From assembly GCA_041744535.1 (NCBI GenBank), contig JBGTKR010000491.1, positions 1-51,523 on the forward strand: a stretch of DNA of 51,523 bases, written 5' to 3'. The DNA is from Pyrinomonadaceae bacterium. GTDB taxonomy: Bacteria; Acidobacteriota; Blastocatellia; Pyrinomonadales; Pyrinomonadaceae. Below are positions 5,701 through 36,564 of this stretch, piece by piece; within the stretch, counting starts at the first letter, position 1; every line of letters begins with the position of its first letter. The notes beneath the pieces are model-generated. The model was not told where the DNA came from, did not search any database, and was given only the letters and a program-made list of their open reading frames with translations. The translations under genes and the position numbers were made by a program.

Positions 5701-8142
5701 CTCCAACGCCGTTCCTTGCGCTGCGATACTTTTTATCGGACGACCCAAATCATCATATTCGGTCGCATTCGTCAGATTATTATCGACATCCATCGCAGAT
5801 GTTACCAATCCCGTGTAAAAATCATACTGCATCGTCGAGGTTCTCTCGACAGATGTCTGGTAAGCTTTTTCAGTCTGTGTCGGATAAAGATTTGAATAGC
5901 CGTTAATTGAACCGTAAGTTAGATTTGTTACATAACCTTTCGGATCAGTTATAGTCAACGGATTTCCGTATTGATCGTAAGTAGTTAACGCAACTACTGC
6001 ATTTCCGGAATTTAGCCGAAAGCCGTTTCCGTCCGGGCTTGGGAAGGTTGCGGCTTTGGTTGAATCCCACTTTCGCGTTTGAGTCGGATTAGCCGTCGTA
6101 TCGGCATTATCATAGACAATTTCCGTGTGCGATACCGGCGTTAGGTTTGCGTGTTTGACAGTTGTTGATTTCACCGCATTATTGACTTTCTTCGCTGTTG
6201 AATTCCAATAGGAATTGGCATTATTCGCCGTCGAATTCGAGGCATCTTCCGTCGGATTATAATAGACATTTTCCGTAATCCTTTTTACGGTCGCTCCGCC
6301 CGGTATCCCTGTTATATTGCCTGACGAACTACCTGGCATTGCGCTGTATGCCATCCAATCATATTCCGTTATTTTTGTAACATTTCCGTTTTTGTCATAT
6401 TCATAATCCTTGATTGCCGTTAAAGACGGATTTCCGGCATTGTCGGGAATGGTCGTGAACTCCGTTTTGACGTATGTATTCAGCCGTCTCATCGAGCCGC
6501 ATCCGTAGCTCGGGCAACCTCCTACCTTATTGTTTGCCCATATTCTTTCGACAATTGTTCCGCCCGGACTGGTTTCCTTATATACTCTTCCGCTCAGGTC
6601 ATTATCGGTTGTCGTATTAGAAAATTTCTGTGTTGTTACGCCGCCGTCCGGTCCGGTAATTGTCGTTGTGCCGCTCTGACTTATTGAATAGAGCCATGTT
6701 TCGGTAACCTGTTGGGTATTTCCGTCATAATTGGTTTCGTATAAAAGTCTTTTTTCCTTTATCTTGCCCAATAAAGGAAGCAGGTCGTCTGTTCCGAAGG
6801 CGATTTGATGAGAATAATCATATTCCGCCTTTGCTCCAGATGGCAGAGTTACATCTATCAAGTCTCCCCAACCGGGCGAACTGTTCGGATTATTCGGATT
6901 CTGATTATATGCAACTTGTCCTTCGTGTCCGTTATAATTAAATGTATATTTCAATCCGCCTAATTGACTCGGAGTTTCTATCTCATCAATTACTTTGTGT
7001 TGGGCAACCATCACCTGATCGGAATAACAGCATTTTCCGATTCCGCCGCCTGCTCCCGAGGTTCTATAAGGTCTAATCACCGTAATATATTTCCATTTTA
7101 TTTTCCAGATGATCGGCGCTCCGTTAATCCCTAATTTATAAATATGATCTTCTGTCGAAGAAATAGCCTTTCTAGCTACATAACGTCCCATTTGGTCAAT
7201 ATATCCGGTTACGGTTGAGCTGTCAGGCAGGGTAACCTGACCTTTCGTTACAAAATTACCGTTTTCATCATAAACCCTCTGCGGCAAAACATTGCTTTGA
7301 GCATCCAATTCTCCGTTTGTAACTTTACTTCCGTCAGGCATGTAAATTGTCCACTGATTTATATTAGTCTGACCTTGTGGAATCTCGAGCCTCATAAAAG
7401 TTCCATCCGTGCTGTAATAAACCATTGCCGGATTCGGATCTATACTCGGTACAACATATGTGCTGTAAGAAGGATTTCCATCACACATCGTGCTTGCTCC
7501 AGACGTTGTCCATATCAATGTATTTATTTCTCCCGTGGGACTTACATTAAAATAACCATCTCCGAGATATGTTGGATTTCCACTTGAATTGTAAATTGAG
7601 TCTGAATAACCTGTCGGGCGAAATTCATGTTGCGAGCCGTCAGGAAAATAAACCATAAGTTTAAAAACATAAACTCCAGCATAATTAGGTTCCTCACATC
7701 CGCCACCGACTTGAACCGGCTGATCCAGTTCATCATTGCGATTAATAACTCTTATTTCATAATCCCCGTCGTATTTCCATCCGCCTTCATAATCAGGGCG
7801 AATAAATTTTTGAGGCTTTAAATCTCCATTCAGATCAAGAGTTGTCATCACATGAGATTCATACAACTTACTGTTGTATTTCAACGATATTCCCTGCTGC
7901 GCCGTCCCGCGACCTCTGACACTGCCGAACCCAAAATTGAACATCAGATTGCCATTGGTCGTGTTAATTGATTCGATATCGGAAATCGCGTAAGGAATTC
8001 CCGGCTGGAAGTTTTGTTGAGAATGTTTATCCTGTGCCTGAATACCCGAATGTCCGGCTAATAACAAACAAATTAAACTAAAGACCATCGTGAAAATTTT
8101 CCGATCTAACGCCGACACTAAACTTGATTTGAATCTATTCAT
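2746..8142 (-). CDS. Rhs/YD-repeat polymorphic toxin with Sec signal peptide and C-terminal HExxH zinc-metallopeptidase toxin domain
   Basis: The signal peptide is MVFSLICLLLAGHSGIQAQ. There are dozens of YD repeats (YDENGN, YEYDKNGNVTKI, YDQYGNPLTI, YDDLGRPIKS, YLYDNNGNLTEK and others). The core ends at DPxG (YVDPDGE, about 3413-3424). A 218-aa tip follows, containing FGHEARHD (HEARH at 2926-2940). Confidence 0.95.
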   Translation of the reverse strand: MNRFKSSLVSALDRKIFTMVFSLICLLLAGHSGIQAQDKHSQQNFQPGIPYAISDIESINTTNGNLMFNFGFGSVRGRGTAQQGISLKYNSKLYESHVMTTLDLNGDLKPQKFIRPDYEGGWKYDGDYEIRVINRNDELDQPVQVGGGCEEPNYAGVYVFKLMVYFPDGSQHEFRPTGYSDSIYNSSGNPTYLGDGYFNVSPTGEINTLIWTTSGASTMCDGNPSYSTYVVPSIDPNPAMVYYSTDGTFMRLEIPQGQTNINQWTIYMPDGSKVTNGELDAQSNVLPQRVYDENGNFVTKGQVTLPDSSTVTGYIDQMGRYVARKAISSTEDHIYKLGINGAPIIWKIKWKYITVIRPYRTSGAGGGIGKCCYSDQVMVAQHKVIDEIETPSQLGGLKYTFNYNGHEGQVAYNQNPNNPNSSPGWGDLIDVTLPSGAKAEYDYSHQIAFGTDDLLPLLGKIKEKRLLYETNYDGNTQQVTETWLYSISQSGTTTITGPDGGVTTQKFSNTTTDNDLSGRVYKETSPGGTIVERIWANNKVGGCPSYGCGSMRRLNTYVKTEFTTIPDNAGNPSLTAIKDYEYDKNGNVTKITEYDWMAYSAMPGSSSGNITGIPGGATVKRITENVYYNPTEDASNSTANNANSYWNSTAKKVNNAVKSTTVKHANLTPVSHTEIVYDNADTTANPTQTRKWDSTKAATFPSPDGNGFRLNSGNAVVALTTYDQYGNPLTITDPKGYVTNLTYGSINGYSNLYPTQTEKAYQTSVERTSTMQYDFYTGLVTSAMDVDNNLTNATEYDDLGRPIKSIAAQGTALEMWTTTEYNDILRRVIVRSDLETKGDGKKIAVQHYDELGRVRLSRRIENAATEDPTNEQHGIKVQTRYKMGNPYSYTLTSNPYRAATSSQAANEDSMGWTRSKSINTGKYSETESFTGAALPHPFLTSGYNTNSTGKVRTDIDADRVLVTDQAGKQRISKTNALGQLTDVWEITAADSATEGITFGSPQISLNGYKTGYEYDPLNNLTKVIQGSQTNRTFSYSSLSRLKTAFNPESGTISYLYDNNGNLTEKTDARGVKTDYSYDELNRVTLRDYSDLTPDVTYTYSTTAPVVGQLIKVENSYSKTEYTQFDILGRVTKSKQTTDGTAYNEMEYVYNLSGGLVEQKYPSGRVVKNILDNDGELSIVQSKKNANAGYWDYAKNFTFTAAGAVSSMQLGNGKWESAVFNSRLQPTQIALGTVQGGDDKLKLNFEYGVLNWDGSVLAGTNNGNVARQIITTPTTGSTSGFTATQYYTYDSLNRIKIAKENIQTEGQSVQLGWQQQFVYDRYGNRTFNEGSESGQYLTTTLPRTCGTEPNLVCPADNPAADTTNNRLNGFTFDNAGNTEEDPGGREFTYDGENKQILVKDSSGNRIGEYFYDGDGKRVKKIEFSNNVATQTTIFVYDASGKMVAEYATNVEPTQTARVSYLTSDHLGSPRITTDKDGRVFSRRDFMPFGEELDSTHTAQRDVNLNYGEDGLRQKFTSYERDTETDLDFAQARYYSNQHGRFTTVDPIMLEVKRLVDPQAINLYLYTRNNPLKYVDPDGEKFKGTDDQEVIIEREKVNGKKIWVIKSGNASKDLQKLVNLINDSGSRTASNMFKKLNKHETMINLVIDSTTSRTQEEINTGSTTIGLHEPHDKNGPVTFNSTTDKFDGKADPAVDDKGNVIKGAYREATITLYEKKMEELGYSGERLNGKMVAVFGHEARHDLDPLQVQAGLTGTGSNDIWHPSKQGKPGGPRIPKKESPHYFGNKIIRQIERSKGIIID

Positions 8143-8212
8143 TTCTGCTTTCCTTTTCTGCCAAACTTTTCTCTTGATTTTTGTTAATTCTCTATAATCG
8201 ATTTTGACTTGA

Positions 8213-9442
8213 TTATCTTCGGTAAATCGCCGGAACGGGAATATCTCCTGACACGCCCCACTGCACGATTCGCGTCGAGGAATCCGCGCTGTTTCTGATA
8301 TACCACGTCCCCGTCGACGCTCTCCACACCGCTATATCAACTTTGCCGTCTCCGTCGTAATCGTTCTGAACGGCTTCGTCTCCTGATTGCTGCCAACTGA
8401 TTGTTTGGGTTTGATTATTTGAGCTATAAAGGAAATCCCAATCAGCTCCGCTTCTCAGAGCATAATCAGCCTTGCCATCGCCGTCGTAATCCCCCGGCAC
8501 CGGCTTATCTCCGCTTTGTCCGAATTGTGCCGTCTGCAGTTGTGAGTCGCTACTTCTCAAAATGTAGTATGTTCCCGGATTTCCCTCTCTCCAGACAGCA
8601 ATATCGGCTTTCCCATCGCCGTCGTAATCGGCTGCCACAGGTATGTCCGAAGCAAGTCCGAATGAAACAGTATAAAAGCTGTAATCGGTGCTTCTTTGGA
8701 TATACCAGACTCCGCTGCGGAAAAAGGCAATGTCCGTTTTTCCGTCGCCATCGTAATCGGCTTGAGCAAGCTGATCTCCGCTTTGTCCGAACTGGAGAAC
8801 GGTATAGCCGGAAGGATTGGAACTCGGCTGAATATACCAATTGCCTTCCGATGGTCGAAAGACACAGAAATCGGTTTTGCCGTCACCGTCGTAGTCTCCC
8901 GGAGCCGCTTTATCTGTGGAAAGTCCCCACTGAACAGTGGTCTGCTGTGAACCTTGTCCGCCAAGAACCCACCAAACACCGGTCGAAGGTCGCCAGACCG
9001 CCAGATCAGCCGGCGGCACGGCGGAAGCATTAGCGTCCTCAACCGCTAATAATTTGCTCCCGGCATATAAATATTCCTTCGATAATTGCGGTGTCGGAGT
9101 CGGTGAAGGCATTGGAAGAAAAGGGTTTATCCGGTTGAATAAGGATTTATTGTCCGATGTCAATTGTCCGTTTTGCAATTGTCTTTTAGCATCGTCTTCC
9201 AAATATTTCAGACCCGCTCCAAACGCTCCGAGCGAGAGGAACACAATTATCCCCACTACCAGCCAATGCTGTTTCAGATACGAAAGGTTCAGTTTTCCGA
9301 TAACTCCCGTTGTTTCGTTTTTCTGGGAAGCAGTCGTTAGATTCGTTTTTCCCCTGAATTCAGAATTTTTAATACCTTCTGTTAACCCGGTTTCGATCAG
9401 AGCTTCGGCTTTGAGCGCATTTCTTCTTTTCTTTTTCGACAT
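8213..9442 (-). CDS. Single-pass membrane protein with FG-GAP/VCBS-type repeats
   Basis: The N-terminus is basic, followed by a TM segment (WLVVGIIVFLSLGAFGAGL). There are six or more repeats of DYDGDGK(T/A)D(I/F)AV(W/F)R...G.WYI. At DNA level this gives a periodicity of about 130-137 bp. Confidence 0.85.
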   Translation of the reverse strand: MSKKKRRNALKAEALIETGLTEGIKNSEFRGKTNLTTASQKNETTGVIGKLNLSYLKQHWLVVGIIVFLSLGAFGAGLKYLEDDAKRQLQNGQLTSDNKSLFNRINPFLPMPSPTPTPQLSKEYLYAGSKLLAVEDANASAVPPADLAVWRPSTGVWWVLGGQGSQQTTVQWGLSTDKAAPGDYDGDGKTDFCVFRPSEGNWYIQPSSNPSGYTVLQFGQSGDQLAQADYDGDGKTDIAFFRSGVWYIQRSTDYSFYTVSFGLASDIPVAADYDGDGKADIAVWREGNPGTYYILRSSDSQLQTAQFGQSGDKPVPGDYDGDGKADYALRSGADWDFLYSSNNQTQTISWQQSGDEAVQNDYDGDGKVDIAVWRASTGTWYIRNSADSSTRIVQWGVSGDIPVPAIYRR

Positions 9443-13114: not shown

Positions 13115-16100
13115 CTAAAATTCCGAAAATCCTCCGAAGGGGATAAAAGCAGCCCAGTAATACGGGTTACGAAACTGCGTATTTTCACCTTCAAGTAGAT
13201 CTATCTGCGCCCGGCGCAGGGCTGCCGGCGTCGAAAGCTTTTCCAGTTTGCGATAGCGATGAAAACGTATCATCAGCTCCGCGGTCGAATCCGAATCAAC
13301 CTTCCACTGACTGGCGACAATAACCGGAACTCCTAAAGCCAAAAAAGTCCGGGCTGCTCCAATCATTCCCTCACCCTCATAAAAGCGTTCGACCCCGGTT
13401 TCACAAGCTGAAAGAACAATGAGTTGTGTATCTGAAAGTTTTCCCTCAAAGATTTCATAATTAGCGAGAACCGAATCCTTCTTTTCCCGCGTCTGTACGT
13501 TTTCCGCCAGGACAAGGGCGGAAAATAGAGGATTTTTTTGATCGACAACATAATGCCCGGCAAAATGCACCACATCCGCTTTTGACAAATTCTCTTTTAC
13601 CATCTTTTTTGAGGCATCCTTTCCCGTCAATAGAACCGTCGTTTTGTAGAACCGAGAAATCTCCCTTGCTTCCCATTCAGCCGAATCGAGATCAGCTAAA
13701 TCCGCAAACTCTTTTCGACTAAATGACGGATTCCCGATACTGAGCAGGGTTTCGTCCGTATTTTCGAACAACTCACGCGCTCTTTTGGAACTGTTTAAGA
13801 AAACATTGGCACTTGGCGACAGGAACAGGTTGTATTTAGTAATAAAAAACCTATTCTCCCCCGGTGAAATAAGGGCGGCAACAGATAGATGAAATAATAT
13901 CTTGTCGGGAATCAGACAGACCTTTTTTCCCCCGTCCAGTTTTTCTTCTACCGGGCTGATCAGTATTTGGTAAAGTTCTCTGGCTAAAGCGTCCCGCTCG
14001 TTTGCTTGCGGGTGATTGCTGATTGAAATCAAAGCCAAAAATTTTCTGACTTTATCCTCCAAAGCCGGGGCGGAAATATCCGTTTTATAGACGCTGAATT
14101 CCTCTTTTGTCAGCAGCCAGATCAGGGTTTTATCGCCGAGGACAGAGTACTGGATGATTTGCACATCTTCGGGCATCATCGCCCTGATCTCAGACAGTTT
14201 TAGCGGTTCGGCAACATTTAAAGAAAATTTAATTTCAGGATTTAGCCCTTCCTTTGAAATTTCGACAGCAGCATTTTGGAGATCCAGGAGGGAACGCGAA
14301 CGGGATTCTTCGGAATAATCAAAAGCTCTTTCATAATTTTGTTTTTCAAATTCGTAATTAGTAGCGATATCGTAAACGCTCTGTTCCTTGTCAAAAAAGA
14401 GATTCCGGTTCTGTTCCTCCAAAATCTTTGTCCGGTATTCGCGGAAAAGACTCAAAATAACCGGAAGTTCCCCTTCAAAACCGGAATCGTCGTTGGTCTC
14501 GGAGTAGCAGAGCAAGCGTCCCTTATGAGCTTCATAGCGATTTATTTGAAATTCTCCGGTTTCGTAAAAAGTAAGAGCTTTTTCATAATTTTGTAACGCC
14601 TGCGAACAGTCTTTTGCCTGTCGCTGGATATGTGCCGTCTGCAAATCGGCATAAGCATTGCTTTTCTTCTTTAATGCCTCATCGGTAAATTCTTCTGCCA
14701 CTTTCCGCCCCTTATCGAATGAGCTAAAAGCTTCCTCATATTTCCCCTGAGTCCCGTAAATGAGTCCCAGGTCTATATACGATGAGTAAACGAACGAATC
14801 TACCCGCAGGGCTTTCGCCAATATCAAAGATTCATTTCTGTAAGTTATTGCCGCATCATATAATTTCATTGCCAGAAATATGCCTGATACGGCGTAGAAA
14901 TCTCTCCATTTTTGGCGGTCGCTGGATTCCGGAAAAGCGGCTAAAAAAAGACCTTTTTGGGCAAAAACGAGAGCCTCATTATTGTCGCCAAGCCGCCGAT
15001 AAACGTCGGCTTGCTGCAAAAGAGATTTTTGCTCGTTAAAAAGATCAAAAACCTGCCCGGAATACTCAATCGCTTTCCGGTTATATTCAATAGCCCCGGA
15101 CAAATCTTTTGAAATCACCCCATTGTTTGCGAGCCAGCCGAAAACGTGCGAAGCCAGCCAGTAGTATTTATTGCTTTCACAAAAATCGGATAATTCCTGA
15201 AGAATCCGCGTACTGTTATCAATCTGGTTGAGCCGGTTTAGAGAATACCCGATCCAGTAATCGCAAAACCGGGCTTCCCAGATATTTTTAGATTTTTCAA
15301 AAAGAGCACGGGCGCGGGTAAACTCGGCAAGCGCCTTCTGGTGATTGTTTAGCCCGATTTGTTCATATCCTTGGCGGACTGAATTATTTGCCTCTTTGAG
15401 ATCGACCATCTGAGAGGGTGTCGCGGCAGCGTAAAACTTTGCGATATCTAAAAAAAACAGATCACGCGACCTGTTTTTTTCAAGTTCTCCGATATACGTC
15501 ATCGCCGATAAATACTTCGGTTTATCAGTGCCTTCAGCTTCCAAAAATAAAAAAATAAGCTGTTGCGGGATCAATTTTCCGGTTATCATCTCCCGATTTC
15601 GACTGACAATCCGGTAAGCCGTTTCATCATCCGCGTTGTGGTAGGCAGAAAAAAAATCCTGCAGAAGTTGTTGCGGGGTTTTGCTCTGTTGCCGGTTGAA
15701 TTCGAGCAGTTTTAAATTATTACGAGCCTCGTCCGCCCAGGGCGAGAAAGAGTCTTTTTCCAGATATTTCTGCCAAGCTTCTCGTGCCTGCTGAGCAAGT
15801 CCCATTTTTTGCAAAATTAAAGCCCGGTTGAAAAGTGCTTCGGGCAGCGAGTCATTAATTTCTAAAGCCCGGTTGAAGGCTTCAAGACTTTTTGCCTTAT
15901 TTACCAAGCTCTCGTCAAATTTTTTGTCCGCCTCCTCTAGTTTGGATTTCTCCAGAAGAGTGGCACCGATGTCGCTGTGGAGCGCGGCATTATCCGGTGC
16001 CAGCGTTAGGGCGAGGTTAAATTCTTTTAATGCCTCATCGAATTTTTTGTCCGCTAAAAACAATAGCCCGAGCGCGTGATGGGCTTGCGCGTCCGTTTCA

Positions 16101-16768
16101 TTTAAGGTCGCGTCCAGCAGAAACCGTTCGGCGCGGCGATATGCCCGCTGATCCGCGGCAGCAGGGTCGGAGCCGCGGGTTTCCGACATCGGAGCGTAAT
16201 CAAAATTCACCGAAAGGCGCGGCTCGACGGGGCGCTGCCCGCGGTAGGCAAGGCGAAGCTGGGCAATTCCCCGGTCAACATCCGATTGATAAAACGCTAC
16301 CCGCCAAACGCCTAAGACGAGAAATCCCGCAATCAGAATTACGGCGGCGAACCGGACAGTCGCCGTAGAAAACAGCTGCCGCCAGAAAAAACCCGCTCTT
16401 TTTTCTTGAACCGGTTCTTTTAGGTTTTGCGTTTTATTTTTGCCGGCATATTTTTGCAAATTTCGGATGAGCTGAAGTTTTTCCTGACGTTCGGGAAGAA
16501 TCAGAAAAAATCTGAGAAAATGCTCCCGTTGCGACTGAGTGAGATCGCCGTCCAGATAATTTTCAATCAATTCGTCTTCGGCGACGGATATTTTTTCATT
16601 GAAATCATCATCAACCATAATTTTTTCTTCGAATTGGCGCATTTTCGTTTCATCAGCCAGGTTTCCCAGCAGGTAGTCCCTGATCGCCGATTGCTCATCC
16701 AAATCATCTTTTATCTCCTCTTCACCCTTCTTCATAACATAATGACCAAAATTAAAAAAACCTCTCAT
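13115..16768 (-). CDS. Anti-sigma-like N-domain, TM segment, TPR array and CHAT (caspase-like) protease
   Basis: I place the start at the Met whose ATG overlaps the sigma-factor stop as ATGA (16765-16768). The N-terminus reads IRDYLLGNLADETKMRQFEEKIMVDDDF...LIENYLDGDL. The TM segment is VRFAAVILIAGFLVLGVW. A long TPR-like region follows. The C-terminal CHAT dyad is VVHFAGH...LIVLSACETG. Confidence 0.85.
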   Translation of the reverse strand: MRGFFNFGHYVMKKGEEEIKDDLDEQSAIRDYLLGNLADETKMRQFEEKIMVDDDFNEKISVAEDELIENYLDGDLTQSQREHFLRFFLILPERQEKLQLIRNLQKYAGKNKTQNLKEPVQEKRAGFFWRQLFSTATVRFAAVILIAGFLVLGVWRVAFYQSDVDRGIAQLRLAYRGQRPVEPRLSVNFDYAPMSETRGSDPAAADQRAYRRAERFLLDATLNETDAQAHHALGLLFLADKKFDEALKEFNLALTLAPDNAALHSDIGATLLEKSKLEEADKKFDESLVNKAKSLEAFNRALEINDSLPEALFNRALILQKMGLAQQAREAWQKYLEKDSFSPWADEARNNLKLLEFNRQQSKTPQQLLQDFFSAYHNADDETAYRIVSRNREMITGKLIPQQLIFLFLEAEGTDKPKYLSAMTYIGELEKNRSRDLFFLDIAKFYAAATPSQMVDLKEANNSVRQGYEQIGLNNHQKALAEFTRARALFEKSKNIWEARFCDYWIGYSLNRLNQIDNSTRILQELSDFCESNKYYWLASHVFGWLANNGVISKDLSGAIEYNRKAIEYSGQVFDLFNEQKSLLQQADVYRRLGDNNEALVFAQKGLFLAAFPESSDRQKWRDFYAVSGIFLAMKLYDAAITYRNESLILAKALRVDSFVYSSYIDLGLIYGTQGKYEEAFSSFDKGRKVAEEFTDEALKKKSNAYADLQTAHIQRQAKDCSQALQNYEKALTFYETGEFQINRYEAHKGRLLCYSETNDDSGFEGELPVILSLFREYRTKILEEQNRNLFFDKEQSVYDIATNYEFEKQNYERAFDYSEESRSRSLLDLQNAAVEISKEGLNPEIKFSLNVAEPLKLSEIRAMMPEDVQIIQYSVLGDKTLIWLLTKEEFSVYKTDISAPALEDKVRKFLALISISNHPQANERDALARELYQILISPVEEKLDGGKKVCLIPDKILFHLSVAALISPGENRFFITKYNLFLSPSANVFLNSSKRARELFENTDETLLSIGNPSFSRKEFADLADLDSAEWEAREISRFYKTTVLLTGKDASKKMVKENLSKADVVHFAGHYVVDQKNPLFSALVLAENVQTREKKDSVLANYEIFEGKLSDTQLIVLSACETGVERFYEGEGMIGAARTFLALGVPVIVASQWKVDSDSTAELMIRFHRYRKLEKLSTPAALRRAQIDLLEGENTQFRNPYYWAAFIPFGGFSEF

Positions 16769-17334
16769 GCCCCATTTTCTGCAACGCATCCGATCACGCA
16801 TTTCTTTAGGCTGCGGCGGATCCGTGAGGCTTTGACCTGGAAGGCAGTTTCACTGATTCCCAAGTTTTTTCTCATTTGTTTCCGGTGCCGGATTTTTACA
16901 CTTTTTTCGCCCTGGTAATACTCAATTATAAATTCTCGCTGCCGCTCGGGCAGAGTTTTCATACAATCTTCCAAGCATTTGTATTCAATTTCTGAATCTG
17001 TTTCGGTATTCTGATGGTGTATGATGGACGGTTCCATTTTTTTCAGTCTTTTCTGCTTTCTGAGCCATTCGAGATAGATTTTATTTGCCACCCCATAAAA
17101 ATAAAATCCCGGCTCGCCGGTGTAGCTGTCAACGATATGCGACAATTTTAGTGCAACGCGGCTGATTGTTTCGTCCGCCAACTCCTCTGCTTCGAAACAA
17201 CCGCGACCGGCAAAAACACGAATCAACCGCTGACGGATTTTTTCGTATTTTTGCCCGGCAGTTTCCTGATCCAGGTCAAGCCATCCGAGAAGGGAGTGAA
17301 AGCTTTCCCGTGTTACTGTATCTTCTTTAACCAT
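16765..17334 (-). CDS. ECF-type sigma-70 family RNA polymerase sigma factor
   Basis: Region 2-like sequence is IRQRLIRVFAGRGCFEAEELADETISRV...YFYGVANKIYLEWLRK. Region 4 is LPERQREFII...LGISETAFQVKASRIRRSLKKC. The start is set at MVKEDTV, because the upstream 44 codons look like non-coding read-through. Confidence 0.8.
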   Translation of the reverse strand: MVKEDTVTRESFHSLLGWLDLDQETAGQKYEKIRQRLIRVFAGRGCFEAEELADETISRVALKLSHIVDSYTGEPGFYFYGVANKIYLEWLRKQKRLKKMEPSIIHHQNTETDSEIEYKCLEDCMKTLPERQREFIIEYYQGEKSVKIRHRKQMRKNLGISETAFQVKASRIRRSLKKCVIGCVAENGA

Positions 17335-17618
17335 TATCAAAACAGGCTGGTTTAAAATATAGACCCGCAGCAGCAGCGCCAAGATGCACGTAATAAAGGT
17401 AGAGCAAGACTGCGGATAAACCAATTTGCTATAATTTGCTATAGGATTAAAACCCGACTTAACCAACAGGAGATTTTACTAAAATTGGTTTAGGCAAATT
17501 TTCTTCCTCTTCAACCAACTAAATAATGTGACGCTCTTTTTTTCCGGATACCCAGTTTCAAATTATAAAAAATTTACTTGTCGCGGACGGTTTTTTGTTT
17601 AATACTGGTTAAAGGATT

Positions 17619-19028
17619 TTACTCATCAAGTATTATCTCAATTAATTCAAAAAACCCTTCTTCAATTTCCTCTGTGGAATAATAATTTGTCTGCGCCTTC
17701 ATTTCTTCAACCATTTTCGGTAACGGCACTTCCGTTTCCTCGGATTTACCGTGCTTTCCCTTCATAGTTGAAATTACTGTTTTCATCTTTTCGGCTTTCT
17801 CACCTTGTTCGGTTTTCTTTTCAAAACCGTGCCAGATTGACTTGGGCGTGGCGTTACGGCTGCCGTGATGCCCAACTTTGTAAAGAGTAGTACCGCGTAA
17901 TAGGTTTCGTAATTTCTCATCCGTTTTGGCTTGATCCAGAAGGTATTGCCAGTTCTCAATTTGGGCATCTCCGGGGAAAAGCAGTTTCTCGTCTCCGACT
18001 TCGATTAAAAGAATAACGCTGGTATTATTTAGCGCGTTGTCAACAAATCGAACGATCTCAAGCAGTTGATTGGCTCTGAGCGAACGAAGTTGACGGACAA
18101 ACCAGCGGACGTTCGGTGGTACGAATTCCTCATCAAGAACTTTATCTTTGGCAAAAAGGAGCGTCTTGCCTTCAATATGCCCTTTTGTCAGGTTACTTGT
18201 TGCTGCCTGGGTCGCCCAAAAATTCTTGGTCATTGCCTGCAAAGACCAGAATTCATCACTTGTTTTCGTCGCGCGGGTAATTTTATCGCTTTGTTCCAAA
18301 CTCGGCGGTCCCAGCACATGAACTTTTACTCCCGGCAAGATCGTTTCCCAATCGATTTTGTCATAACCGAAATTAACATAATGATTCTCGCCCATCTTTT
18401 GCAGGTTGTCGACCGCCGCCCGATTCTTTATCTGGTTATCATCGGCGGCAAAAATAATTTGTTCGGTCAGCTGATTATCAATCGTTTTGGTAAATTTATT
18501 GGTATTGGAAAGATTCTTGATTTCAGCTTCGATCGAGGCGGCAACAAACTGCATATCGTTTAACATCGCCGCGAAATTCTTAGATCCCTCCGTTTTGAAA
18601 TCAAGCTGATTCAAAAAGGATTTCTTCACATTTAAATCACGATTGTCATCCGGGTTTTCCGTCCAGGGCTGGATGACAATCGTGGGGTGACAATCCATAA
18701 TTATTTTTCCCGCTTCCTTTAAACCGAACCCGTAAATATGATCTTTGTGGCGATGCGTCGCCACGACGATATCGAGCTTTCCGTTAGATGTTGCTTTGAT
18801 ATGTTCCGCAATTTTCAGCAATCTCTGCCCGGTTGTATCCTTATTTTTTTCTTCAATTTCATTTACTTCTGATTCGCCATCTTTTTTATGTTTGCCTTTA
18901 CCCATACTGCCAAAATCAATTAAAACGCTTCTTTGGACGCCGTCATCATATTTGAAGATAATCAGAAAACAGTCGCCGAAATAGACATTATATGAGTACA
19001 GTTCAATTTTATCAGGCTGATTTGACAT
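17619..19028 (-). CDS. Cytoplasmic metallo-beta-lactamase-fold hydrolase
   Basis: DIVVATHRHKDHIYGF contains HxHxDH. PGDAQ and YKVGHHGSRNA lie in the C-terminal half. There is no signal peptide. The gene starts 2 nt after the upstream protease stop. Confidence 0.85.
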   Translation of the reverse strand: MSNQPDKIELYSYNVYFGDCFLIIFKYDDGVQRSVLIDFGSMGKGKHKKDGESEVNEIEEKNKDTTGQRLLKIAEHIKATSNGKLDIVVATHRHKDHIYGFGLKEAGKIIMDCHPTIVIQPWTENPDDNRDLNVKKSFLNQLDFKTEGSKNFAAMLNDMQFVAASIEAEIKNLSNTNKFTKTIDNQLTEQIIFAADDNQIKNRAAVDNLQKMGENHYVNFGYDKIDWETILPGVKVHVLGPPSLEQSDKITRATKTSDEFWSLQAMTKNFWATQAATSNLTKGHIEGKTLLFAKDKVLDEEFVPPNVRWFVRQLRSLRANQLLEIVRFVDNALNNTSVILLIEVGDEKLLFPGDAQIENWQYLLDQAKTDEKLRNLLRGTTLYKVGHHGSRNATPKSIWHGFEKKTEQGEKAEKMKTVISTMKGKHGKSEETEVPLPKMVEEMKAQTNYYSTEEIEEGFFELIEIILDE

Positions 19029-19030
19029 CT

Positions 19031-20845
19031 CTAAAATCCCTCCGTTTCATCAATTTTACGGTTGAGCACTCGGTTCAGGTGCATCCGCGAAAAAGCGTTT
19101 TCCGTATAATCCGGGTTGCCGAGATAACCATATTGCCAGAGATACTTAATCCGCTTAGGCTGGTGGGTACGGCTAAAAATACTATTCGCAATATGATATT
19201 TTAACTTCCCGTATTCATCAAAGATAAGAGTCCCTCCCCCGTAGAGCGTAATTTCCACATCGTCGGGAATTTCCGGCGGGATATTAATGCCGAGCGGCGG
19301 CAGTTCATCGGCTCGTAAAGTCGTCATTTGAACATATTCGGCAACCGTTTCGCGGACAACAAAACCGTCGGGACCGACGCGCAAACAGGGGCGCACGGAT
19401 TGAACTTTCATATAAGCTTTACCGAAGTAGTCCTGCTCGGTTTCCAAATTCAGATCGGCTCGGTTATCCCAGATAAAGCGAAAGATTTCGTTCGGGTCGC
19501 GTAAAAGGGAATCAAAATGTGTGCGATCGTAACAAAAGTCCCTATTGGTCATCCGCCAGAATCCCTCAGTGATGGAAGACCCCGGAGCTGGTTCGATGCC
19601 GTAGGAGGCAAAACTATCGCGTAAGATCTGCCGGTAGCCATACCGCGAATCATCCGGCACGGTTTCGCGGTCAGATGTCAGCAAAGCACTCAGATAATCA
19701 TGAAAGCGAATATCGGTCGGCGGCATGTAATCGAGGGCGCGAATCGCTATCGTCAGCAGATGATCTGCCGCTTCCGCGCCTTCATCGACGACAATCGAAG
19801 CGTCAATTTCCTGTCGTCCCCGGGTAAATCTCTCCATTCGTCTGAGCCATACTTTTAAAAAGGCGTTCATCAGCGCGGCAACAAGAAGTTCGCCGCATTT
19901 ATGCGGTTCCTGAAAAGCCCCCTGCTGCAAGTAAGGAACGGGTTTTTTGGTGTTCACGCGCGGCAATTCATCTAAAGTCGGCAACACGGCGGAACGCCTC
20001 AACGCACTACCGCGAATTCCCGAAAGTTCTTGTCCCATCTGTTCTGCCAGTCCCAGCAAGGTCGTACTTTTCAGATAATCCTCGGTTAGAAACTCGACCG
20101 GAACATTATTTTCCTTAATTTCAAATCCGGCAATCTTTTCCATATTGACATTAAGCAAAAGGTTTTTGACAACGTCTTTTAATGAAAAAACCGAAAGTAG
20201 TGCGACGACATCCGCGAAGCCCTCATGAAAACCGGCTTGCTCGGGTGAAGATGGGGCAGTGTAACGTTCACGTAAACCGTCTAAAATAGCGTGGGTTGTT
20301 TCGTGGGCAACCACATCGTGCGACAAACAGGTGAAAACCACACCCGAAACATCGGTTTCCGACGGCACGCGAAAATAACCGAAAGCCAAAGCCTGGTCGC
20401 GTTTGGAATAAAAGGCATTGGCATCGCCAAAAGCGTGGGGGGCAACGTAAATCTGGTGACCGTCAAATCCCCAACTGATTCTTCTGCCCAGGGCGAACTC
20501 GAATCGTGCCAGCGTTCTCATCACGATCGCATAAACATTTTGGGCGTGAAAACCCGGCTCATCAAGCAACTCCTCAATACGTCCGTCCTCGGCATATGCG
20601 GCAAAAGGGTCAATGTAGCAGCCGTCCTCCTGCGGCGGCTCATATGGTTGCGGTTGATAGAGCGTTCCGGTCGAGGTGTCATAATCAACGACGTGAACGC
20701 GATAACCGCGAGGTCCCGGGGCTAATTCCTCCGCGGGGATCTCGACTTGGGTTACAAGAATACTTTGAGTTTTCTTATTGATTATGCTTGGATCCTGGGC
20801 AATAATCGTTAATTTTCGGGTGCGGGGTAGTGGTCTTGATCTCAC
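19031..20845 (-). CDS. Cytoplasmic thermolysin-like (gluzincin, M4-like) zinc metalloprotease
   Basis: The motif is VVAHETTHAILDG...AGFHEGFADVVA. This is HExxH plus a third-ligand Glu in an xEGxxD context about 23 residues downstream; compare thermolysin HELTHAV...GAINEAISD. There is no signal peptide or TM segment. Confidence 0.8.
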   Translation of the reverse strand: MRSRPLPRTRKLTIIAQDPSIINKKTQSILVTQVEIPAEELAPGPRGYRVHVVDYDTSTGTLYQPQPYEPPQEDGCYIDPFAAYAEDGRIEELLDEPGFHAQNVYAIVMRTLARFEFALGRRISWGFDGHQIYVAPHAFGDANAFYSKRDQALAFGYFRVPSETDVSGVVFTCLSHDVVAHETTHAILDGLRERYTAPSSPEQAGFHEGFADVVALLSVFSLKDVVKNLLLNVNMEKIAGFEIKENNVPVEFLTEDYLKSTTLLGLAEQMGQELSGIRGSALRRSAVLPTLDELPRVNTKKPVPYLQQGAFQEPHKCGELLVAALMNAFLKVWLRRMERFTRGRQEIDASIVVDEGAEAADHLLTIAIRALDYMPPTDIRFHDYLSALLTSDRETVPDDSRYGYRQILRDSFASYGIEPAPGSSITEGFWRMTNRDFCYDRTHFDSLLRDPNEIFRFIWDNRADLNLETEQDYFGKAYMKVQSVRPCLRVGPDGFVVRETVAEYVQMTTLRADELPPLGINIPPEIPDDVEITLYGGGTLIFDEYGKLKYHIANSIFSRTHQPKRIKYLWQYGYLGNPDYTENAFSRMHLNRVLNRKIDETEGF

Positions 20846-20904
20846 GATAGGTCTCCCAATAAAATTTAGTTAATTTATAAAAATACTCAGAATCTCTCTT
20901 CAAC

Positions 20905-22116
20905 TTATCCGACTCCGACTAATGGGAACAGGAATTTTGAAGGTTCCGAAATTGAACTATTGACATACTGCCGCATACCGAGATCAGAGACGGCATATCC
21001 CCAATTGATTAATCTTTCCTGCGTTGCCTGATCGAGCTTTTTAAGCCGGGTGTCAACTTGGGCAAGAAGAGTAGTTTTATCGAACGGGCAATCGAGCGGT
21101 GTTTCTATTTTATAATCCAGTGCCGCATCCGCGCTGATCGTCCAGTAGGTTCCTTGTCTGATTCCTGCAATAAAAGCCTCGACCGCCTGACGTTTTCTGA
21201 GGCTCCTGACCTGATTGTCGATTGTCATCAAAATCCGCACGGAATGCCTGACCCAATCTCTGTGCGGATCGGCTTCCGCGGAAAAACCTCCACCGGCATC
21301 ACTGATCAAAATCGTTTTATATCGTTTCCAGGCGGTTTCAAGCCCTAGATTGTCATACACCCCTCCGTCGGTCAGAACAACCTGCGTGCGGAATTCATCC
21401 CCCTGCAAATCGGTTCCGCTGCCGGGCGTAAAATCCGCCGGGTCCAGATCGAGTTCCATCGGCGAGAGAACCGGCGGGAAAGCGGACGAGGCAGCGACGG
21501 CGACCGCCAGATCGATCTTCGGATTTTTGACTTCGCCGACCCGGTAATCCCTCATATAAGGTTTCATAAACCGCCACAGAACGCCCGATTGGACATTCGT
21601 CGCATTGAAGACAAACCGCGGAGACTGACCCGGCACTTCGTCCACAATGTCCTGCAAAGTGCTGTCTCCAAAGAGATATTTCCGGTATGCGTCGGCAACC
21701 TTATCGCTGATGCTGCCGAACCATAACGCTCCGAGTGCGACCGAGGAGACATCAATCGTCCGGGATGCCAGGTTCTTTATCGGAGAGACGATCAGTTGCT
21801 CAAAATTTTGAGCAACTCCGTCATGAAAATCGAGTTCCTCCCACTTTAAAGCCAAAAGTCCGGCAGTGATCGAACCGCCTGAAACACTCGAAATGCGGTT
21901 TATTTTGGGAAGCCAGCCGATCTCATTGAGCCGCCAGAGAACACCGGCGTGAAAAAGCATCGCCCGGTAGCCGCCGCCCGAAAGACATAAAGCAATGCCT
22001 TCTTCCGGCTCTTTACTCACATCCGTTTCAAGATATTGCACCGGTTCCGCGGCATTTTGATCTTTTTCTTGATAAATTTCGCTTTCTTCGTTATTTTTCA
22101 TCATATTTGAGCACAT
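20905..22116 (-). CDS. Patatin-like phospholipase
   Basis: CLSGGGYRAMLFHAGV is the GGGxR oxyanion box. SSVSGGSITAG is the nucleophile elbow. LTDGGVYDNLG holds the catalytic Asp in DGG. The start may be Met5 or Met6 (22104 or 22101). Any of these starts overlaps the upstream ORF. Confidence 0.9.
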   Translation of the reverse strand: MCSNMMKNNEESEIYQEKDQNAAEPVQYLETDVSKEPEEGIALCLSGGGYRAMLFHAGVLWRLNEIGWLPKINRISSVSGGSITAGLLALKWEELDFHDGVAQNFEQLIVSPIKNLASRTIDVSSVALGALWFGSISDKVADAYRKYLFGDSTLQDIVDEVPGQSPRFVFNATNVQSGVLWRFMKPYMRDYRVGEVKNPKIDLAVAVAASSAFPPVLSPMELDLDPADFTPGSGTDLQGDEFRTQVVLTDGGVYDNLGLETAWKRYKTILISDAGGGFSAEADPHRDWVRHSVRILMTIDNQVRSLRKRQAVEAFIAGIRQGTYWTISADAALDYKIETPLDCPFDKTTLLAQVDTRLKKLDQATQERLINWGYAVSDLGMRQYVNSSISEPSKFLFPLVGVG

Positions 22117-22885
22117 CTATGTAAAGAGATTCCTCCGCCTCTTCATCCTTATCATCAGCAGTCAAGGAAAACGGTCTGATCGATTTTAGCGGTCCGACCG
22201 AAGTGCTAAACCATTTTCGTTTTATGCCGACCAGCTGAAAAAGCGGCGTAACATTTTCAGATTCGAGCATATTCAGCATCGTTCCCGATTGTTTTTTGAT
22301 TGAAAATTTCAGACCGGCATCTCCGAGTTCGACATTACCGACCTGTCCGCTGGCTTGGGCTTCGAGTTCCAATCCTGATTTTGACGATTGCGACACGATG
22401 ATATCGGCATATGGAGCTTGAACAATCGAATAAATAACCGCGTAGTTCTTTTTCCAAACATCGGTTTTATATGCTTCAAGAATTTGTTTTTCGAGTCGCG
22501 CGACATTTCTGATGCGCGGCTCGAAAGTTTTTTTGGCTTTGATAATAAAAGCTCCTTCAGAAGAAAATTCTATCCCGAGACCGGCTTTGCCTTTAGGAAT
22601 ATTGGGCATCGCGGGATTTACCTCACCGGCTAATTTGAAAGCCAGACTGACGCTTTTACTCGAAACCAGATCGATCGGCGAAGAACTGGTGTCAGGAACA
22701 ATGTCCTTGTCGGGCGAAAAACTTATTCCCAAATCGGCAAGCGTCGAAACGGGACGGAAAAAGTAATCGTCAACAACCTCGCCGACAGTGCCGATCTCGA
22801 TGCTTGAGCTAGGAAGCCAGTGAGCAAAATAAAACTTTGTTTGTCTTCTTACATTTTTGGCAAAAACTTTAGCAACAGTTCCCAT
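22091..22885 (-). CDS. Gasdermin-like (bGSDM-like) candidate pore-forming protein with acidic C-terminal tail
   Basis: The protein is 264 aa, soluble and beta-rich, with no Cys. The N-terminus reads LPSSSIEIGTVGEVVDDYFFRPVSTLADLGISF. The later segment is YAVIYSIVQAPYADIIVSQSSKSGLELEAQA...LKFSIKKQSG...TPLFQLVGIK. A tail of about 35 aa follows (...LTADDKDEEAEESLYIDVLKYDEK). It is the first gene of an operon that contains a protease. The family assignment comes from my recollection of the pattern, not from a search. Confidence 0.45.
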   Translation of the reverse strand: MGTVAKVFAKNVRRQTKFYFAHWLPSSSIEIGTVGEVVDDYFFRPVSTLADLGISFSPDKDIVPDTSSSPIDLVSSKSVSLAFKLAGEVNPAMPNIPKGKAGLGIEFSSEGAFIIKAKKTFEPRIRNVARLEKQILEAYKTDVWKKNYAVIYSIVQAPYADIIVSQSSKSGLELEAQASGQVGNVELGDAGLKFSIKKQSGTMLNMLESENVTPLFQLVGIKRKWFSTSVGPLKSIRPFSLTADDKDEEAEESLYIDVLKYDEK

Positions 22886-23283
22886 AACATAAATCTCCTT
22901 AAATTTTTTTTATCTTTTGATTCCGGTATTAAAAACGTTACATTTTAATTAAGCAGGAATCACAGTTTGAATTACTTGAACTCTTTTGGGTTTGGATTAA
23001 AGCTTTTTATTTTCAATTTACCCCTTAAAGAAATTTTTCATCTATAGAAAAGAAATTTCTCTTTAGGCTTAATTGAGGGGTAACAAAAATGGCGATGAGA
23101 GAAAATATATTGATGTTTTTCAATAAATGAATTGACTCCATTTTGAAAAAAAATCACTCCCAAAGTTGCCATCTGATGATATATGCCAAAAACCGATAAA
23201 ATATTACAGATTTTTTTTTCAAAACCATAAAATAAATACGGTTTTATGAAAAACTCAGAGTATTAATCTTAATTCCGATTTTT

Positions 23284-24474
23284 TTACCACATCATCACGG
23301 CGGTCTCCTCTTCTCGTTCAGCGTAATAAAGCCGAATGCGAAGAACGTATTTCTTCCCGCTGAACAGTTTCACCTTCAAATAGGCATTTCGGTCTTCGCC
23401 CCCATCGTCATCGCCGGCAAGATAACGAAGTTTTTCGCCGTCGCGTTCAAATAAAACCATCACGGTGTCGGACGCGCCGAACGTGCGGATTTCGTAATTT
23501 CGGGTTGCCTGGGGTTCGATCTCGAAGTTTTTCTGCTCGCCGGGAGCAATCGACAGCCTTACTGATTCCGCAGGTTTGAGTTTCGGGAAACCGCCTGCTT
23601 TTAGAGGTGGATAAAATGATTTGACCCAGGATTTGTCCCTAACAGAAAGTCCTCCGGCAGGTCTTATTCCGTTTGCGTGAAAATGTGCCGGTTCTTTTAT
23701 AAGTCCCGGTTCAAACGGATAATGCATAATTGAGTTCGGGTCCCATTCGGATCCCTGGACTGTGTCGGGCGAGATTTTTCTTATAATATTATGAAAGGTC
23801 GTCTCTCTGCTCCACCTGTTCGGCGGTTTGGCAAGGGCGGCATAAACGGCTTCCTCGTCCCACGCGATGCCGGCGATCGGATTTTGATGCTCGTGCGGGA
23901 AACCCAAAGTGTGACCGATTTCATGGATAGCCGTATCAATCTCTCCGGGATGGCTCGTTAAATCCCAGCCGAAATTCATAGTCCGCTCGCTGCGCCCGAG
24001 ACCGAGATCAATAATATCGCGTCCGACAAATGACCAGGCACCGTCTTTCCGCTCAAATCCGATGCGGATTTCCGCCTCATCCCTGGAACTGACCTCCTTA
24101 AAATTCAGACCGATGCCGGCTGCCTTCCATGCATCAAAAGCCTGTCGCACCACATCCATTTCCCGTTTGGTCGTTTTCCACGCCCGCCACTCCTTTTTAC
24201 CGGTTGCCATCGTTACATGCCGCCCATCTCCTTCCTCATTAAAAAAATAATAATGGAGGGTTGTTCCATTAACCCATTTTTTCCCGTTTATAATGATTAA
24301 ATCCAATCTGCCTGGGTTGAGACCCGCCGCAAATTGCGGGGCGGAAACCATCGGGATTGAACAATATGCAGGAAAACCTGTTTCCGCCGGTTCGCTTTCG
24401 GAAATTGGCGGCTTTATTACGGGTTCACTTTTTGCAGCTTTTTTTGTTTTGCTTTTGTTGCTTTTTTTTGTCAT
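23284..24474 (-). CDS. Astacin-family (M12A metzincin) metallopeptidase with C-terminal PPC-like domain and no recognisable signal peptide
   Basis: HEIGHTLGFPHEHQNP matches HExxHxxGxxHE. SIMHY is the Met-turn. The C-terminus YEIRTFGASDTVMVLFE...GDDDGGEDRNAYLKV...YVLRIRLY resembles a pre-peptidase C-terminal domain. The N-terminus is Lys-rich (MTKKSNKSKTKKAAKSE) and not hydrophobic. Confidence 0.85.
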   Translation of the reverse strand: MTKKSNKSKTKKAAKSEPVIKPPISESEPAETGFPAYCSIPMVSAPQFAAGLNPGRLDLIIINGKKWVNGTTLHYYFFNEEGDGRHVTMATGKKEWRAWKTTKREMDVVRQAFDAWKAAGIGLNFKEVSSRDEAEIRIGFERKDGAWSFVGRDIIDLGLGRSERTMNFGWDLTSHPGEIDTAIHEIGHTLGFPHEHQNPIAGIAWDEEAVYAALAKPPNRWSRETTFHNIIRKISPDTVQGSEWDPNSIMHYPFEPGLIKEPAHFHANGIRPAGGLSVRDKSWVKSFYPPLKAGGFPKLKPAESVRLSIAPGEQKNFEIEPQATRNYEIRTFGASDTVMVLFERDGEKLRYLAGDDDGGEDRNAYLKVKLFSGKKYVLRIRLYYAEREEETAVMMW

Positions 24475-36285: not shown

Positions 36286-36293
36286 CTTTTGAT
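36286..36293. repeat. Right copy of the 8-bp target-site duplication of the IS256 insertion
   Basis: cttttgat follows the right IR directly. Confidence 0.85.
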
Positions 36294-36355
36294 ATTTTTT
36301 GATGAAACCAAACGCAACCAACTTCTAAGCGAGGTAGTGTCCTAATAATGTGTTG

Positions 36356-36541
36356 CTACTTATTTTTGGTGTCACTTATTCTTGCTCTTAGGCTATTTGC
36401 AAGATGTGAGCGAATATAGCTTGCAAATTGGTGTCGTTCTTCTGAATCACCTTGCATTTCAGTTGCTGTATGTAGAATTGCATCTATTTCTTCGTGTATT
36501 ATTTGTCTGATTTCTTCTTTATCTTCATTACTAAGTGCCAT
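36356..36541 (-). CDS. Small acidic hypothetical protein inside the IS1-family element
   Basis: This 61-aa ORF lies downstream of the transposase. Its TAG stop is formed by the last 3 nt of the left IR (36356-36358). Confidence 0.35.
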   Translation of the reverse strand: MALSNEDKEEIRQIIHEEIDAILHTATEMQGDSEERHQFASYIRSHLANSLRARISDTKNK

Positions 36542-36564
36542 TGTTTTTCCTCTTTGTTTATTAT

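Follow-up and report, generated by a model that had tools for sequence, protein, structure and literature searches.

We analyzed a 51,523-nt stretch of DNA from a Pyrinomonadaceae bacterium (Acidobacteriota; contig JBGTKR010000491.1, positions 1 to 51,523), hereafter the window, whose numbering is used throughout, and within it an operon of four minus-strand genes at 17619–22885 that encode, in order, a divergent bacterial gasdermin (G), a patatin-like phospholipase (PAT), a zinc metallopeptidase (M), and a metallo-beta-lactamase (MBL)-fold hydrolase that is a probable (pro-)DNase (the protein called MBL below). The interpretation that we favor, and to which we give slightly better than even chances, is that the operon is a composite, protease-gated cell-suicide module of the abortive-infection type, built around a conserved M-MBL core. 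It draws on the folds or families of the four proteins, the conservation of their catalytic residues, the linkage of M to MBL, the lipase and astacin partners of this pair, and the plasmid and defense-island contexts in which the pair occurs; from these we infer the activation steps, the substrate relations, and the defense phenotype.

The conserved M-MBL core

The four genes are closely packed, as had been noted in a preliminary description made from the sequence alone, and the open reading frame (ORF) list bears out both coordinates and spacing. PAT (20905–22116; 403 aa) overlaps the end of G (22091–22885; 264 aa) by 26 nt when counted from its first ATG and by 11–14 nt when counted from Met5 or Met6, 59 bp lie between PAT and M (19031–20845; 604 aa), and 2 bp lie between M and MBL (17619–19028; 469 aa). 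An AAGGAG ribosome-binding site precedes the ATG of G, and the 398-bp spacer upstream of G (22886–23283, minus strand) is AT-rich (GC content 0.261 vs 0.406 for the whole window) and is probably the promoter region of a G-PAT-M-MBL transcript; it holds one sigma-70-like match (22971–22942), by consensus alone. The consensus scan for promoters and terminators did not exceed shuffled expectation and is not used as evidence. In a Kyte-Doolittle hydropathy scan, no transmembrane (TM)-like window was found in G, PAT, or MBL (maxima 0.98–1.36), M showed a single marginal window (1.68) that falls within its catalytic helix, and neither the four proteins, for which this had been claimed before, nor the product of the neighboring gene AST (described below) has a signal-peptide-like N-terminus or a TM helix.

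Gene neighborhoods were compared by ORF and BLAST analysis of 88 loci (designated L001 and so on), with adjacency to MBL scored in 85 M cases; the contigs of L089 and L093 were too short for use. In 74 of the 85, the gene immediately downstream of M encodes an MBL homolog, mostly at gaps of −4 to +12 nt, and the pairing persists even at ∼30% identity: the M-MBL pair is the conserved core. The idea that all four genes are conserved together holds in part. The full block recurs on two other contigs, as G-PAT-M-MBL in L001, where it sits beside AbiE and an integrase and has no astacin gene, and as G-astacin-PAT-M-MBL in L005, where an M29-like gene and an AAA ATPase gene follow; L008 has astacin-PAT-M-MBL without G. 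Since the flanks differ among the window, L001, L005, and L008, the recurrence on two other contigs is more than chance, but the block is modular, and the unit that is conserved is M plus MBL. Between L005 and the window, G, AST, and PAT are 67–77% identical, as against 34% for M and 28% for MBL, which indicates that the accessory set either remained attached to a core pair that is very divergent or became joined to it again. Among 102 operon mates, the only recurrent families are patatin (9) and astacin (6), the rest being singletons or housekeeping genes.

M carries HETTH at residues 181–185 followed by GFHEGFAD, which includes E208. The residues H181, E182, H185, and E208 are invariant in 38 homologs, and the pattern HExxH…xE(G/A)xAD is kept at fixed spacing in 84 of 85, the sole exception being a truncated ORF. 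The gluzincin arrangement originally read from the window is thus real and conserved, and it is because of this motif that we class the otherwise unannotated M as a gluzincin-type zinc peptidase, membership in the thermolysin (M4) family not being established. Third-ligand Glu motifs read NEAxSD in M4 and NEGFA in M1 peptidases; M shares with these gluzincins the HExxH and a subsequent third-ligand Glu, in GFHEGFAD, that resembles both. It differs from thermolysin and M1 enzymes in having no significant sequence or fold match to them and in being a cytoplasmic protein of ∼600 aa with unrelated flanking domains. An AlphaFold2 (AF2) model (predicted local distance difference test score, pLDDT, 77.5; predicted TM-score, pTM, 0.85) shows, besides the catalytic domain, a beta domain at the N-terminus, a helical domain, and, at the C-terminus, an alpha+beta domain that is possibly NTF2-like; Foldseek gave weak matches to the M1 aminopeptidases ERAP1/2 (prob 0.33–0.41), with the C-terminal domain weakly matching NTF2-like folds. 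Searches of PDB (Protein Data Bank) sequences with M, as a single sequence and as a profile, gave no match, no Pfam family scores above threshold, and the family has no NCBIfam model either. The M family is large, with more than 5131 clusters at 90% identity and 349 matching stretches in a one-genome-per-species collection, and spans Acidobacteriota, Alphaproteobacteria, Planctomycetota, Verrucomicrobiota, Gemmatimonadota, Nitrospirota, and Actinomycetota; homologs are found on 49 plasmids, 30 of them conjugative.

In MBL, the metal-binding motifs read THRHKDH (residues 91–97) and GHHGS (386–390), with HxHxDH kept in 81 and HHG[ST] in 79 of 82 homologs. PADLOC matches are to the LmuA-associated (Lamassu) MBL (9.4e-17), PDC-M48B (3e-10), RTasMBL of DRT (8.5e-7), and Avs1a (3.9e-6), and the NCBIfam matches are to the 6A-MBL enzyme (1.3e-8), Avs1a (2.6e-8), and ComEC/Rec2 (1.9e-6), so that the assignment as an MBL hydrolase, made at the outset from the motifs, is borne out. 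All scores lie below the equivalog cutoffs, so MBL is related to these families without belonging to any of them; by its sequence, it falls with the defense-associated "gated" pro-nuclease MBLs of the ComEC/Avs1a type, as a putative nuclease. A Lys/Glu-rich stretch, KHKKDGESEVNEIEEKNKDTTG (window 18825–18896, MBL residues ∼45–68), stands right before HxHxDH and is absent from ∼90% of homologs; it may form a loop close to the active site that is specific to this lineage.

Outside the window, the pair is found in several plasmid settings that, judged from individual loci, are typical defense islands. Plasmids of Agrobacterium vitis and Rhizobium phaseoli carry M-MBL followed by DUF2235 (a type VI secretion system [T6SS] Tle1-like phospholipase), in R. 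phaseoli beside a CBASS operon. On R. leguminosarum pRle248a (L102), a CBASS operon with its own DUF6602 effector is followed by patatin-M-MBL and then by HamA-HamB; on Methylorubrum extorquens CM4 pCMU01 (L098), an S8 subtilase-M fusion and MBL lie between SIR2 genes; and on a Hymenobacter plasmid, AAA ATPase-M-MBL adjoins an integrase. A genomic contig of Bosea vaviloviae (L084) has M-MBL-HamA-HamB. Adjacent genes of distant M-MBL variants thus include an AAA ATPase (L005 and L099) and HamAB (L084 and L102), and further operon mates of M-MBL belong to Hachiman, bSEFIR, PDC-M23B, SngC, and mad2.

Two of these loci deserve separate mention. The fusion protein in L098 (5717–8815; 1032 aa), annotated as "S8 family serine peptidase", combines a subtilase at its N-terminus with an M-like domain at its C-terminus, in which HETTH…AFHEAFAD is retained, so some "subtilase-associated" MBL nucleases may also carry a metallopeptidase domain. 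In L084 (5107–9439) and L102 (8583–11734), which are unrelated replicons and whose M proteins are ∼50% and 31% identical to that of the window, respectively, HamA (DUF1837) and HamB (helicase) come after M-MBL on its strand, an order that echoes published HamMAB (MBL + protease-HamA + HamB); M-MBL-HamAB may represent a version of Hachiman that uses an unfused metalloprotease/nuclease pair, or the genes could be mere defense-island neighbors.

These contexts bear on whether the pair serves in defense at all. Many M-MBL pairs stand amid housekeeping genes (glpX, metK, ahcY, bipA), some upstream neighbors are oxidative or hydrolytic enzymes (hemocyanin/tyrosinase, heme peroxidase, GMC oxidoreductase, metallophosphoesterase), an RHS toxin is also encoded in the window, and carriage on conjugative plasmids fits addiction or exclusion equally well. 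M-MBL(-lipase) might then act in autolysis during stress or development, in scavenging of DNA or nutrients, in plasmid addiction or exclusion, or in inter-microbial antagonism, with the gasdermin as a lysis or release factor. We consider such a role quite improbable: the proteins all lack a secretion signal, the nearest named MBL relatives are all anti-phage components, several loci lie between CBASS, Hachiman, and SIR2 genes, and anti-phage roles have been demonstrated both for bacterial gasdermins (PMC10312443) and for protease/MBL pairs (PMC12799240).

The odd enzymes encoded directly upstream, on the same strand, at M-MBL or G loci (L017 7553–9655, L072 312–2156, L012 8223–9992, L009 8082–9980, L001 7811–9853) comprise a hemocyanin/tyrosinase, an animal-type heme peroxidase, a GMC oxidoreductase, a membrane metallophosphoesterase, and a vanadium-chloroperoxidase-like protein, each seen once or twice. 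The possibility that the tyrosinase/hemocyanin, peroxidase, and GMC oxidoreductase are swapped effectors is weakened because only patatin and astacin recur, everything else being singletons or housekeeping genes.

Gasdermin, lipase, and astacin partners

G escaped direct searches: there was no match in Pfam, the PADLOC bacterial gasdermin (bGSDM) model, NCBIfam, or PDB sequences, and searches of PDB sequences with the single sequence and with the A1 profile gave nothing useful. A word-indexed search found 16 relatives, and an AF2 model built on that alignment (pLDDT 80, pTM 0.76) was compared with the PDB by Foldseek, as the preliminary description had called for; the best 13 matches are all gasdermins (prob 0.94–1.0), namely GSDME, the GSDMA3 pore, the oligomers and pore of the Vitiosangium bGSDM, the Runella and Bradyrhizobium bGSDMs, and fungal RCD-1, and not an unrelated fold. 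An exhaustive family profile search returned 2131 representatives at E ≤ 1e-3; 12 of 105 sampled members match the PADLOC bGSDM model (best E = 1.8e-5) and none matches any other PADLOC family, and a profile widened to these 105 sequences matches the Bradyrhizobium gasdermin PDB 7n50 at E = 6.4e-5. Three distant relatives on long contigs are each directly followed by three Peptidase_C14 genes, which is the canonical gasdermin/caspase-like operon. The modeled fold, the profile link, and the gene context of relatives converge on the assignment of G as a divergent bacterial gasdermin, and the gasdermin likeness first suspected from the sequence is upheld.

The model of G comprises a helix at the N-terminus and a beta core with long hairpins; a disordered low-confidence linker lies at residues ∼225–250, and a short strand at the C-terminus (254–258) falls on a conserved LYxDxL motif that is seen in both the model and the alignment. 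Such a predicted linker and strand are compatible with a removable inhibitory tail; the Bradyrhizobium gasdermin has been described with a comparable short C-terminal strand (PMC10989679). G has no Cys in its first ∼20 residues, nor is one conserved there in the 17-member alignment. An N-terminal palmitoylated cysteine is present in several bGSDMs but is not universal.

A gasdermin is seldom part of M-MBL loci. A G-superfamily hidden Markov model (HMM) found no gasdermin near M in any of 79 species-level loci, and metagenome scans for further G loci gave none, or contigs too short for use; the gasdermin is a rare, lineage-restricted late add-on to M-MBL. Genes of ∼240–280 aa upstream of M, considered as hidden gasdermins, were rejected with the same HMM result, one family among them being DUF4388. 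Elsewhere in the superfamily, the G relative P0005 (L002 10001–10902, also in L003 and L004; 58% identical, 240 aa) lacks the C-terminal tail and has a 48-aa ORF after it, standing otherwise alone beside a divergently transcribed pair of LexA-like S24 peptidase and UmuC-like polymerase genes; a frameshift or a split of the gasdermin gene may explain this, or the gasdermin may be under SOS-linked control. Large fused regions occur in P0150 (1119 aa, with the gasdermin-like domain at residues 141–378), P0191 (649 aa), and P0277 and P0280 (∼390 aa each).

PAT matches Pfam Patatin (PF01734) over the full model at E = 2.1e-21, and its GGGxR, SxSxG (here S-V-S-G-G, the nucleophile motif), and DGG motifs are kept in 14 of 14 homologs, so that the patatin assignment stands; all motifs initially quoted for the lipase, the protease, and the MBL enzyme are in fact present and retained in homologs. 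At 14 loci, which come from Acidobacteriota, Planctomycetota, and Alphaproteobacteria, a patatin homolog (39–86% identity) is encoded on the strand of M-MBL, either immediately before M or immediately after MBL. In L097 (9984–11117; A. vitis) and L100 (7984–9117; R. phaseoli), a DUF2235 gene overlaps the end of MBL, giving the order M-MBL-lipase; two unrelated lipase families, patatin and DUF2235, fill one slot. In L010 (8751–9912), from an Acidobacteriota metagenome-assembled genome, the patatin gene ahead of M-MBL is broken into two ORFs (267 and 111 aa), which probably reflects either a frameshift in a pseudogene or a faulty assembly. We also considered PAT as a CapV and the operon as CBASS-type, and rejected this reading: no CD-NTase cyclase was found in the operon or its flanks, and NCBIfam CBASS_lipase matches PAT only at E = 0.082 (the PADLOC phospholipase effector model at E = 8.7e-4).

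The distribution of G and PAT raises the question of whether one system or two are present. G and PAT could be a membrane-killing pair, activated by AST or by an unlinked protease, that happens to adjoin a self-contained M-MBL system whose M spares both. The overlap of G and PAT suggests translational coupling, whereas PAT and M are 59 bp apart; none of the 79 species-level M-MBL loci includes G, and most lack PAT; in L005, an astacin gene lies directly between G and PAT; and clustering is common among defense systems. Nevertheless, we find two independent neighbors fairly unlikely. PAT adjoins M-MBL in two gene orders and across phyla, and its slot is also taken by another lipase family, which together argue that PAT at least is tied to the core; the G/AST/PAT set remains attached to the very divergent M-MBL of L005; and L001 has G-PAT-M-MBL without an astacin, leaving M as the only protease gene in all three G loci.

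A second co-conserved metalloprotease, beyond the four genes of the preliminary description, is encoded by AST (23284–24474, minus strand; 396 aa), a recurrent accessory gene whose product is a cytoplasmic astacin/MMP-like zinc peptidase with the motif HEIGHTLGFPHEH and a SIMHY Met-turn (Pfam Astacin 1.4e-8, Peptidase_M10 7.8e-8). In L005 and L008, copies 76–77% identical are part of the block or adjoin it, a 63% copy is found in L012, and shorter relatives lie directly upstream of M in L034, L046, L059, and L070. AST also matches NCBIfam NF050131, "beta-glucuronidase AbsR1", at E = 1.8e-137, below its cutoff. The Streptomyces protein SCO6992 (AbsR1) has been reported to bind zinc, to show no protease activity on casein, and to have glucuronidase activity (PMC9705864); the "beta-glucuronidase" label looks doubtful for a family with a metallopeptidase fold, and the lack of general protease activity on casein would fit an AST of narrow specificity. 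GC content is uneven across 17619–24474 (∼0.50 in AST, PAT, and M, 0.44 in G, and 0.42 in MBL, against 0.406 for the window), a hint that parts of the cluster differ in history.

Downstream of the operon, on the same strand, two genes at 13115–17466 lie outside the conserved module: an extracytoplasmic function (ECF)-sigma-like gene (16765–17466) with a weak Sigma70_r4_2 match, and a gene for a 1228-aa caspase-like protease (13115–16801) with tetratricopeptide repeats (TPRs), a CHAT domain (Pfam CHAT 3.5e-62), and TM-like windows. Since CHAT and caspase-like proteases are established partners of gasdermins (PMC10989679) and of gated MBL nucleases (PMC12799240), since the CHAT gene lies ∼0.8 kb downstream of MBL on the same strand, and since distant G relatives have Peptidase_C14 partners, this protease could, in this genome, be the real activator of the gasdermin and/or MBL, in the manner of known gasdermin and caspase-nuclease (canu) systems, leaving M with another role. 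We think the chance of this very small. No CHAT homolog accompanies the block in L001, L005, or L008, or M in 87 of the 88 loci (the sole match, in L026, is ∼8 kb from M); M-MBL adjacency is conserved and CHAT adjacency is not; and the protein is membrane-anchored and paired with the ECF-sigma-like gene, so that the two look like a sigma/anti-sigma pair. We therefore did not retain the TPR-CHAT protein as part of the system. Farther out in the window, 2746–9442 and 34999–37536 encode a 1798-aa RHS-repeat protein, an FG-GAP repeat protein, and Mutator-family (IS256-like) and IS1-like transposases; the window is a variable region rich in mobile elements.

Proposed activation of the module

In the composite module that we favor, MBL, encoded downstream of M, would be translationally coupled to it, and M would be kept inactive until an infection or stress cue, by analogy with the trypsin- and caspase-activated MBL pro-nucleases, which have been characterized by experiment. 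The cue would probably be sensed through the non-catalytic domains of M (N-terminal, helical, or NTF2-like). Activated M would then cut MBL, turning it into an indiscriminate DNase; it might also cut the tail of G, at the ∼225–250 linker and the LYxDxL strand, to release a pore-forming form, and possibly act on the lipase PAT as well. M is a candidate activator of G because it is the only protease common to all three G loci; alternatively, AST might perform a second proteolytic step or serve as a gasdermin-specific activator. Patatin and gasdermin would be membrane-attacking additions in this lineage, and the combined destruction of DNA and membrane would result in abortive infection. A bolder version, which we put forward tentatively and think possible rather than probable, is that M-MBL(-phospholipase) is a widespread undescribed anti-phage family in which M acts as both sensor and master activator, unleashing gasdermin, phospholipase, and DNase, all of them zymogen-like, together in this lineage. 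On that version, this would be the first metalloprotease-gated bacterial pyroptosis, and a fourth protease family, so far overlooked, would join the partners of pro-nucleases.

A number of observations, in addition to the housekeeping surroundings of many M-MBL pairs described above, weigh against the favored interpretation. For M, Foldseek of the full-length model against the PDB gave no match at E ≤ 0.001, so the protease fold is unconfirmed, and the match to Pfam Peptidase_M4 (E = 0.099; 13.5 bits vs a cutoff of 22.4) is below threshold; on these two results, the initial label "thermolysin/M4-like" falls, and M was rejected as a member of that family. For MBL, an alignment of 73 homologs identified no conserved cleavage residue and, by way of possible gating loops, showed only variable segments (∼45–68, 131–150, 171–190, and 271–290, all indel-prone and poorly conserved). 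The operon encodes no STAND, SMC, helicase, or NTPase protein, so a dedicated sensor is missing. For G, the TM-scores against gasdermins are low (0.28–0.46); G stands beside M-MBL on three related contigs only (the window, L001, and L005), and three other members of its sub-family are solitary, without a protease. Given the three contigs and the solitary members, M-dependent cleavage of G is the weakest step of the scheme.

If the scheme is correct, the principles of gasdermin release and MBL unmasking would extend to zinc metallopeptidases, a class not yet implicated in either. A single trigger could drive membrane and DNA destruction jointly, and the large M family (>5,000 clusters at 90% identity, many phyla, 49 plasmids) would acquire a function where it currently has none. 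The system is also tractable: with a core of two genes, and with natural variants in which the lipase is exchanged (patatin or DUF2235), a gasdermin is present in addition, or M is joined to a subtilase, simple co-expression and cleavage assays can dissect the substrate relations.

Comparison with known systems

The closest published parallel is the study by Tuck et al. (Science 2025; PMC12799240) of the ComEC-like MBL hydrolases of AVAST type 1, Hachiman (HamMAB), Lamassu, and DRT, which are "gated" pro-DNases activated through a site-specific cut by a partner protease; a further MBL radiation is paired with caspase-like proteases (CanABC), and the operonic protease families in the survey are trypsin, caspase/CHAT, and subtilase (PMC12799240). 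The M-MBL pair resembles these in placing a ComEC-like MBL gene beside a co-inherited protease gene, in matching the same PADLOC and NCBIfam models, in keeping the catalytic residues of both partners, and in being mobile, modular, and found near Hachiman, CBASS, and SIR2 genes. It differs from them in that M is a stand-alone gluzincin-type zinc peptidase without a Pfam family, rather than a trypsin, caspase/CHAT, or subtilase, and has no fused STAND, HamA, or SMC sensor; in that the nuclease gene is downstream of the protease gene rather than upstream; and in that the module of the window has extra lipase, gasdermin, and astacin genes. As M has no Pfam model, a domain-based survey would not register it as a protease, and defense surveys based on Pfam protease domains will overlook the M family.

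In agreement with the preliminary description, our literature search found no described system that combines a gasdermin, a metalloprotease, a patatin, and an MBL enzyme. The claim that the operon is undescribed can nonetheless be kept only for this four-part combination: the principle of the protease-gated MBL nuclease has been published with other proteases (PMC12799240), so the system is not of a wholly undescribed kind.

The operons of bacterial gasdermins "almost always" include a protease by which an inhibitory segment at the C-terminus is cut off, and the gasdermin slot is exchangeable for other effectors around a conserved protease core (Wein et al., PMC10312443). The window operon shares with these bGSDM-protease systems (Johnson et al. 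2022; Wein et al.) a ∼260-aa protein of predicted gasdermin fold with a short C-terminal extension, operonic protease genes, and G relatives that have canonical caspase-like partners. Unlike them, G is missed by the direct PADLOC bGSDM and Pfam gasdermin models and lacks the N-terminal cysteine, the partners are the metallopeptidases M and AST instead of caspase-like, CHAT, trypsin, or subtilisin proteases, and a lipase and a putative nuclease are co-encoded, with no NLR/STAND ATPase. With CBASS-CapV, the operon has in common a cytoplasmic patatin-like phospholipase as a presumptive membrane-destroying effector in a defense-type operon, whereas it has neither a cyclase nor a nucleotide-sensing domain. 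Taken together, these comparisons suggest that the window operon is probably a metalloprotease-based variant of the protease-gated effector systems, in which a widespread core is joined repeatedly by lipase and astacin partners and rarely by a gasdermin.

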